A stretch of DNA of 10,144 nucleotides, taken from contig CAZWPQ010000038.1 in assembly GCA_964636085.1 (NCBI GenBank), positions 8,765 through 18,908 of the forward strand, given 5' to 3'. The position numbers and the translations under genes were made by a program. Shown here in pieces: positions 1 to 259 of the stretch. A model generated the notes under the pieces. The model had not been told where the DNA came from. It saw nothing but the letters and a program-made list of their open reading frames with translations, and did not search any database. The stretch's first letter is position 1. Each line of letters opens with the position of its first letter. Source of the stretch: an uncultured Nitrososphaerota archaeon. GTDB taxonomy: Archaea; Asgardarchaeota; Njordarchaeia; Njordarchaeales; Panguiarchaeaceae.

Positions 1-259
1 CATAGTCTGGGTTTATTTCTACTGCCTTTCTCCAGCATCTTATTGCCTCGTCATAATCCCCCTTCTTGAAGTATGCAAAGCCCATGTCGTTCCATGCATA
101 CACGAGGTCTGGGTTTATTTCTACTGCCTTTCTGTAGCATCTTATTGCCTCGTCATAATCCCCCTTCTTGATGTATGCAAAGCCCATGTTGTTCCATGCC
201 ACTGCATAGTCTGGGTTTATTTCTACTGCCTTTCTCCAGCATCTTATTGCCTCGTCATA
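1..259 (-). repeat. Tandem 102-bp (34-codon) near-identical TPR-coding repeats, about 2.5 units visible, continuing off the left edge
   Basis: The block gtctgggtttatttctactgcctttct..agcatcttattgcctcgtcata recurs at 5, 107 and 209 (period exactly 102 bp). Confidence 0.97.

Follow-up and report, generated by a model that had tools for sequence, protein, structure and literature searches.

Does the kinase gene at the left end of the DNA analyzed here end in a sensor whose ligand-binding repeats are reshuffled within the population, or in repeats that were recently duplicated and have since drifted? The stretch in question (hereafter the window; 10,144 nucleotides, G000:C38:8765-18908, where G000 is the source MAG assembly) begins with part of a TPR array built of near-identical DNA units. 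We consider it moderately likely that this array is part of a ligand-binding superhelix at the C-terminus of an archaeal Ser/Thr kinase, the last TPRs of which evolve in concert via unit shuffling. In the mechanism that we propose, long identical stretches (153 nt between copies of one unit type, A) would allow units to be gained, lost and exchanged by unequal homologous recombination; such shuffling could alter what the TPR groove binds, and altered binding could change which protein recruits or activates the kinase.

A kinase-TPR gene in an Asgard archaeon

The kinase-TPR gene occupies positions 1-1768 of the window on the minus strand, as delimited by the open reading frame list, the translation and extension of the contig. 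Its start codon lies at 1768 or is the ATG at 1756 found in public gene calls. The 3' part is split by a scaffold gap to the left of the window and continues at C38:8664-8478, where the gene reaches its stop codon. Two full-length kinase-TPR alleles, P0002 and P0122, are 593 aa each. A plus-strand open reading frame at 2-274 was rejected as a gene; it is the antisense of the TPR frame. In a Pfam profile search the gene product comprises an N-terminal Pkinase domain and C-terminal TPR_1, TPR_2 and TPR_11 matches. The genome's aEF-2 is 86-87% identical to those of Ca. Njordarchaeota MAGs from Guaymas Basin, identifying the host as an Asgard archaeon. The preliminary description, which saw a repeat array coupled to a kinase in an archaeon, was thus right on both counts: Pfam places Pkinase and TPR in one gene, and the aEF-2 is Njordarchaeota-like.

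The Hanks-type protein kinase domain (aa 16-255; 1004-1723, minus strand) was recognized by PF00069 (E = 3e-48; 164.9 bits against a curated cut-off of 31.7) and by a motif scan, which located the catalytic motifs, in P0122 numbering, at AIK35, HRDIKPEN from 129, DWG148 and APE172. The DFG motif is therefore replaced by DWG, in which the Asp is kept and the Phe has become Trp. The N-lobe (window 1560-1715, minus strand) is atypical, with GLGGEDAEVW as its Gly-rich loop. The usual alphaC Glu position holds a Lys, with an Asp one residue before it (FRDKASLW); the paralogues have REA..W at this site and the same-genus orthologue has EK. Given the catalytic motifs together with this atypical alphaC site, it is plausible that the predicted kinase is catalytically active.

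Between the kinase domain and the near-identical units lies a linker followed by degenerate, non-homogenized TPR-like helical pairs (aa ~280-503; 260-931, minus strand; from AlphaFold2 and a fold search), a segment that takes in helix A of the last unique repeat, here called "pre". TPR_1 and TPR_2 (PF00515/PF07719) match the C-terminus with E about 1e-36, and the units are 34 residues long with the TPR consensus W4, G8, Y11, A20, A27 and P32. For aa 262-593, AlphaFold2 predicts an uninterrupted all-alpha solenoid built of 20 helices (mean pLDDT 85.8), the closest folds to which are the consensus CTPR, OGT, SPY (SPINDLY), APC3 and PEX5 TPR domains; the model and the fold search thus confirm a predicted generic TPR superhelix and nothing beyond it. 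Positions within the units were numbered by residue-by-residue HMMER alignment to consensus CTPR proteins, and codons were assigned to the concave, groove-lining face from canonical TPR numbering rather than from the model coordinates.

Near-identical units that differ in few codons

Tandem Repeats Finder (TRF) reported a 102-nt period for window 4-259, with 2.5 copies, 91% matches and 3% indels. Read in the direction of the gene, the homogenized tract starts with helix B and the loop of "pre" at 206-259 (minus strand; YDEAIRCWRKAVEINPDY), which is of type W24/Y34 and identical to positions 2-55. On the same strand, alignment of the units by codon then gives a helix A of type A at 158-205 (AVAWNNMGFAYIKKGD), a helix B and loop of type Y24/L34 at 104-157, and a helix A of type u2 at 56-103 (VYAWNDMGFAYFKKGD). 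The array leaves the window in a second helix B and loop of type W24/Y34 that, with the first base of the next helix A, occupies 1-55 and ends the contig at a 100-N gap. The full 102-nt unit 158-259 recurs with 100% identity at the end of another contig of the same assembly, C55.

The six codon differences listed in the preliminary description are the same six that the codon alignment gives: TGG/TAC (W/Y, position 24), TAT/CTC (Y/L, 34), GCA/GTG (A/V, 1), GTG/TAT (V/Y, 2), AAC/GAC (N/D, 6) and ATC/TTC (I/F, 12). Its observation that adjacent window units carry no synonymous difference likewise stands, as 12 bases differ in 6 codons, all of them non-synonymously, while 28 of the 34 codons are identical at every base. 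At positions 34, 1 and 2, the 9-nt blocks TATGCAGTG and CTCGTGTAT have TATGCA in common, displaced; this block can be aligned as a paired 6-nt insertion and deletion and may thus reflect one or two events instead of eight substitutions. At the amino acid level A and u2 are identical at 28 of 34 positions, which is borderline for a criterion of ~85% internal identity. Across the homogenized units, identity is 88-100% for nucleotides and 82-100% for amino acids. Judged from the DNA of the units, homogenization in this lineage begins with helix B of the last unique repeat and runs through helix A of the final one.

Closure of the array across a scaffold gap

The 100-N scaffold gap, C38:8665-8764, lies inside the array, and the window begins directly after it. 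The extension to the left that the preliminary description called for is supplied by C55. This contig is 100% identical to C38 over 8605 nt (C55:691-9295 = C38:60-8664), so that an apparent paralogue is in fact a redundant copy of one locus. It reaches 98 nt further into the array than does the left flank of C38, and its last 55 nt (C55:9339-9393) match window 1-55 exactly. Because of this overlap the array closes as A-u2-A-uB, and the minimal array is pre-A-u2-A-uB-cap, where the cap is the last repeat; the protein from this minimal closure has about 661 aa. The two A copies in G000 share an identical stretch of 153 nt, and the contig breaks at the array because this identity exceeds a 55-mer. 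The unit order and copy number in G000 come from de Bruijn overlap, not from sequence read through the array, and we therefore call them probable. In all, the MAG carries 53 N-gaps, each of 10 or 100 N. Its assembly breaks systematically at repeat arrays, which makes the copy numbers of its repeat genes unreliable.

That the tandem is an assembly artefact, with strain variants of a single TPR unit mis-joined, is very improbable: the array does sit on a 100-N gap in a gap-rich MAG in which 8.6 kb were assembled twice (C55 and C38), but tandem near-identical units recur in three assemblies that are independent of one another and come from different assemblers, the junctions between unit types can be spanned by single 55-mers (36 nt separate the variable sites from A to u2) or 141-mers, and every version is in frame and finishes with one common cap and stop codon.

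Probable array alleles between identical flanks

The two other assemblies, found via a 593-aa protein cluster with two members, are represented by the contigs L051 (ENA ERZ27248328, k141_334867) and L052 (ENA ERZ27247980, k141_163852). Their flanks match C38 without a single mismatch, over 3391 nt upstream and over 2116 nt downstream. The arrays differ: L052 has pre-A-uB-cap, two units shorter than that of G000, and L051 has pre-X-uB-cap. The variation within the population that had been predicted is therefore present, with 4, 2 and 2 homogenized helix-A segments in three assemblies with identical flanks, plus an exchange of A for X. The evidence for it comes from three short-read assemblies, with four unit types among them.

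Two comparisons characterize the variation. G000 and L052 are set apart by two units, a clean indel of 204 nt with identical A units on either side, a pattern that unequal homologous recombination would produce. Between L051 and L052, 7 bases differ in 4 codons within 27 nt, with 0 differences in 2.5 kb of common flank. The codon differences of X versus A are N5Y, F9D (TTT/GAC), I12D (ATC/GAC) and K13E. Because they are clustered in 27 nt next to a clean flank, scattered point mutation does not explain them, and we infer the replacement of a helix by recombination with another unit. The X-type helix was found nowhere else in the G000 assembly, and hence no donor was seen there. An exact search with the 48-nt unit pattern gave 0 matches in metagenome contigs and 0 in genome contigs, and among short open reading frame fragments that might represent further alleles none exceeded 59% identity. 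A diversity-generating retroelement target was also considered and rejected, since the changes are not limited to adenines but touch all four bases on either strand (TTT/GAC, TGG/TAC).

The pre-A and pre-X junctions are incompatible within one array. As the MEGAHIT contigs cross the array unbroken, one allele appears to be dominant in each sample; such contigs may nevertheless follow the majority path of a mixed population, which renders the allele structures probable rather than proven. On this evidence from short-read assemblies, several alleles of the array probably occur in a background that is otherwise identical.

Distribution of the differences among codons

When A, u2, X and uB are compared, 11 of the 34 codons vary and 23 are identical at all bases. 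All 21 variable bases lie in these 11 codons, a clustering for which random placement gives a P of about 1e-5. The four types are separated by 22 minimal base changes, only one of which is synonymous (D16, GAT/GAC, in the terminal unit). The residual differences, as far as the sequences of these units go, are concentrated at helix-A codons 2, 5, 6, 9, 12 and 13 and at loop codon 34. The claim that the variable codons are mainly groove positions is borne out, in that 7 of the 10 amino acid-variable positions fall in the set {2, 5, 6, 9, 12, 13, 33, 34} (hypergeometric P = 1.6e-4), which comprises the TPR concave face and the HOP ligand contacts according to Magliery & Regan (PMC1261162). In every TPR family it is the concave positions that vary most, and therefore this enrichment alone is no proof of selection.

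The scarcity of synonymous change was evaluated against several expectations. With 18% synonymous sites, 1 synonymous change among 11-14 events has P = 0.24-0.37 if every codon is neutral; for 1 in 11 variable codons, P is 0.37 under full neutrality and falls to 0.02 when 40% of codons can change freely. The count becomes unusual (P of 0.02 or less) only when a realistic share of codons is under constraint. A formal claim of dN/dS > 1 was therefore rejected, there being only four unit types and P = 0.37 under full neutrality. As comparators we used two related natural arrays from metagenomes, P0004 (L072:3001-5643) and P0105 (L073:1524-3995). Both are built of the unit type found here, W-x-N-M-G-x-A-[YH] ... 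A-I-x-C-Y-[RQ]-[KR]-A-[VI]-E-I-K-P, and show ordinary synonymous divergence, with 33 synonymous among 100 differing codons. Against this fraction of 0.33, a hand calculation gives P about 0.08 for 1 in 11 and about 0.03 for 0 in 9 (interior units). The excess of non-synonymous change over the comparator arrays is thus marginal. Ordinary divergence of the units under purifying selection is excluded, and positive selection on the unit codons is suggested by the comparison of only four unit types.

These numbers bear on an alternative that we regard as unlikely, namely that the array is an ordinary recent tandem duplication, in which weakly constrained surface positions have drifted and one small indel-type event has occurred; the assembly differences would then be collapse and expansion noise, and the TPR region a generic scaffold or an autoregulatory domain. 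In its favor, young and highly repetitive arrays occur in about 20% of prokaryotic WD40 proteins, in many cases on kinases (PMC5587647), and many of the prokaryotic TPR proteins that we retrieved have an internal identity of at least 85%. The lack of significance under the fully neutral null fits drift as well, as does the reading of the block at 34, 1 and 2 as one indel-type event. Drift since duplication does not, however, readily account for the confinement of 21 variable bases to 11 codons while 23 codons are identical at every third position, and codons that differ at several bases, among them TTT/GAC and ATC/GAC/TAC/TTC, are ill-suited to a few recent point mutations. Nor does assembly noise account for adjacencies, pre-A and pre-X, that are not possible in one array and that lie on MEGAHIT contigs unbroken across it.

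Orthologue, paralogues and relatives

Homogenization of the units is confined to this lineage. The orthologue from the same genus, on G002:C26, is a 762-aa protein with 68% identity that matches P0003 completely or almost so; its eight TPRs are of the ordinary kind, with units 46-65% identical in nucleotides. G000 and G002 have orthologous repeats at either end of the array, "pre" first and the cap last; rebuilding in G000 is limited to the interior. Since the orthologue carries ordinary divergent TPRs, homogenization in G000 is recent. A paralogue that shares the DNA unit, which had been suggested as something to look for, does not occur in the assembly; the unit is found at this locus and in its redundant C55 copy only. 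Searches of the assembly with the DNA unit and the X helix likewise showed no exchange of units between genes of the kind seen in HET-E.

The genome does encode kinases with other repeats. A paralogous WD40 kinase (G000:C7:42418-45087, minus strand) has 120-nt units in A-B-A-B order, with a 240-nt period that is 100% identical; its units differ at D19Y, R21N and K24R and by one synonymous change, GTT/GTA, and this array, too, is split by a 100-N gap. Two divergently arranged kinases with WD40 blades (G000:C29:20549-24438) have a 246-nt period with 81-90% identity, and an LRR kinase (G000:C46:7728-10040) has units of the form DLSPLS... Together with the TPR kinase, the kinases on C7, C29 and C46 form a family with interchangeable repeat sensors.

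More distant relatives of the TPR region sit on other domains. Among its best non-orthologous matches, P0054, P0105, P0008, P0048, P0057 and P0110 contain AAA_16/ATPase_2 STAND-type domains. In P0105 the TPR units are joined to an AAA_16 STAND-type NTPase, and the gene adjoins an ATPase_2-like gene.

Gene neighborhood and a possible role in defence

Within the window, the neighbors of the kinase gene encode a rubrerythrin, an ODP/flavodoxin flavodiiron-like protein, a serine dehydratase, a 252-aa open reading frame with no Pfam family (4349-5107, plus strand) and a 1262-aa surface protein with six bacterial TSP3 repeats and no other annotation (5137-8925, minus strand). The left flank encodes a PaREP1/HEPN protein, a DnaJ-CRD protein, an amine oxidase, an archaeal ATPase and a NosD beta-helix protein. 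Located between the kinase and NosD genes are the archaeal ATPase (PF01637/AAA_14), which has an MCM_C winged helix (L071:2452-3534, plus strand), and the PaREP1/HEPN-like protein (L071:7130-7615, plus strand). Archaeal ATPase and PaREP1/HEPN-like genes are typical of variable archaeal regions. The NosD/right-handed beta-helix protein has a Big_7 domain (L071:2-2116 = G000:C38:2-2116, minus strand); its gene contains 66-69-nt tandem DNA repeats of about 80% identity, and the contig ends within them.

A dedicated immune or conflict sensor, in which the TPR array would detect invader or non-self proteins and the kinase would trigger defence, NLR-like but with the kinase replacing the NTPase, is by analogy conceivable and in our judgment quite unlikely. 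The evolutionary regime resembles that of fungal NLR repeats (PMC4986451), the genome has its family of kinases with near-identical WD40, LRR or TPR arrays, and several of the best TPR-region matches carry the AAA_16/ATPase_2 STAND-type domains named above. Ser/Thr kinases also occur in known anti-phage systems, and in PADLOC the kinase is matched by the PD-T4-6, mad6, MkoA and Stk2 models. These matches, however, are limited to residues 4-355 and none reaches the TPR array; they therefore reflect the generic kinase fold and are uninformative on defence. PADLOC found no known defence-system component in seven neighboring open reading frames, although the amine oxidase neighbor matches the desaturase-type candidate model C3a186. 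No defence island was recognized among the window and left-flank neighbors, which include the flavodiiron-like protein, rubrerythrin, amine oxidase, NosD and the TSP3 protein. Pfam gives Pkinase and TPR families only, so that a NACHT/NB-ARC NTPase is absent and the kinase-TPR protein, having no NOD domain, is not an NLR; it also has no effector or cell-death domain. In addition, archaeal TPR kinases are known in housekeeping regulatory roles, such as that of ArnC in the control of motility (PMC5300886). The broader proposal that the Asgard archaea of this lineage keep Ser/Thr kinases with shuffling TPR, WD40 and LRR arrays for NLR-like recognition of non-self or viruses has, in our view, only a slim chance of being correct.

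Comparison with known systems

In fungi, rapid reshuffling of repeat sensors is a mark of innate-immune-type receptors, and the same is suspected for multicellular bacteria; the locus described here offers a concrete archaeal case, in which three alleles of one TPR array in an identical background differ by a clean two-unit indel and by a swap of four groove codons. If this pattern holds at the level of reads, the locus would be a tractable test of variable kinase receptors in Asgard archaea. Were the NLR-like reading of the kinase true, close prokaryotic relatives of eukaryotes would mount variable receptors on kinases and not on STAND NTPases.

The TPR, ANK and WD repeats of fungal NLRs evolve under the same concerted regime, with repeat-number polymorphism and positively selected concave-face codons (PMC4986451). 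The archaeal units share with them near-identity at the DNA level, polymorphism in repeat number between individuals, variation in a few concave-face codons and, as we infer here, recombinational shuffling. In bacterial NLRs, high internal repeat conservation has suggested the same regime (bioRxiv 10.1101/2020.01.06.895854). Unlike the fungal NLRs, the archaeal locus encodes neither a NOD/STAND NTPase nor a cell-death effector, and signaling would fall to the kinase; furthermore, no exchange with paralogues was seen at this locus, and positive selection there is no more than suggested.

The domain order recalls the bacterial WD40 kinases, PkwA of Thermomonospora curvata and the HR-WD40 proteins of Hu et al. 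2017, which likewise have an N-terminal Hanks-type kinase and C-terminal repeats derived from recent unit duplication (PMC5587647); the paralogues in G000 carry such WD40 arrays. The present gene differs from these kinases in having TPR repeats, an Asgard host and allelic unit swapping seen at the locus. Among archaeal proteins, ArnC of Sulfolobus acidocaldarius (Saci_1193) is similarly a Hanks-type Ser/Thr kinase with TPR motifs for protein contacts, but it has two TPRs, described as preceding the kinase, and neither homogenization nor polymorphism is reported for them (PMC5300886). The closest structural counterparts are the consensus-designed CTPRs (PDB 8chy, 9qhb and 1na0), to which the homogenized units align over their full length as best PDB matches; CTPRs are synthetic proteins with identical repeats, whereas the natural units of this kinase differ at groove positions.
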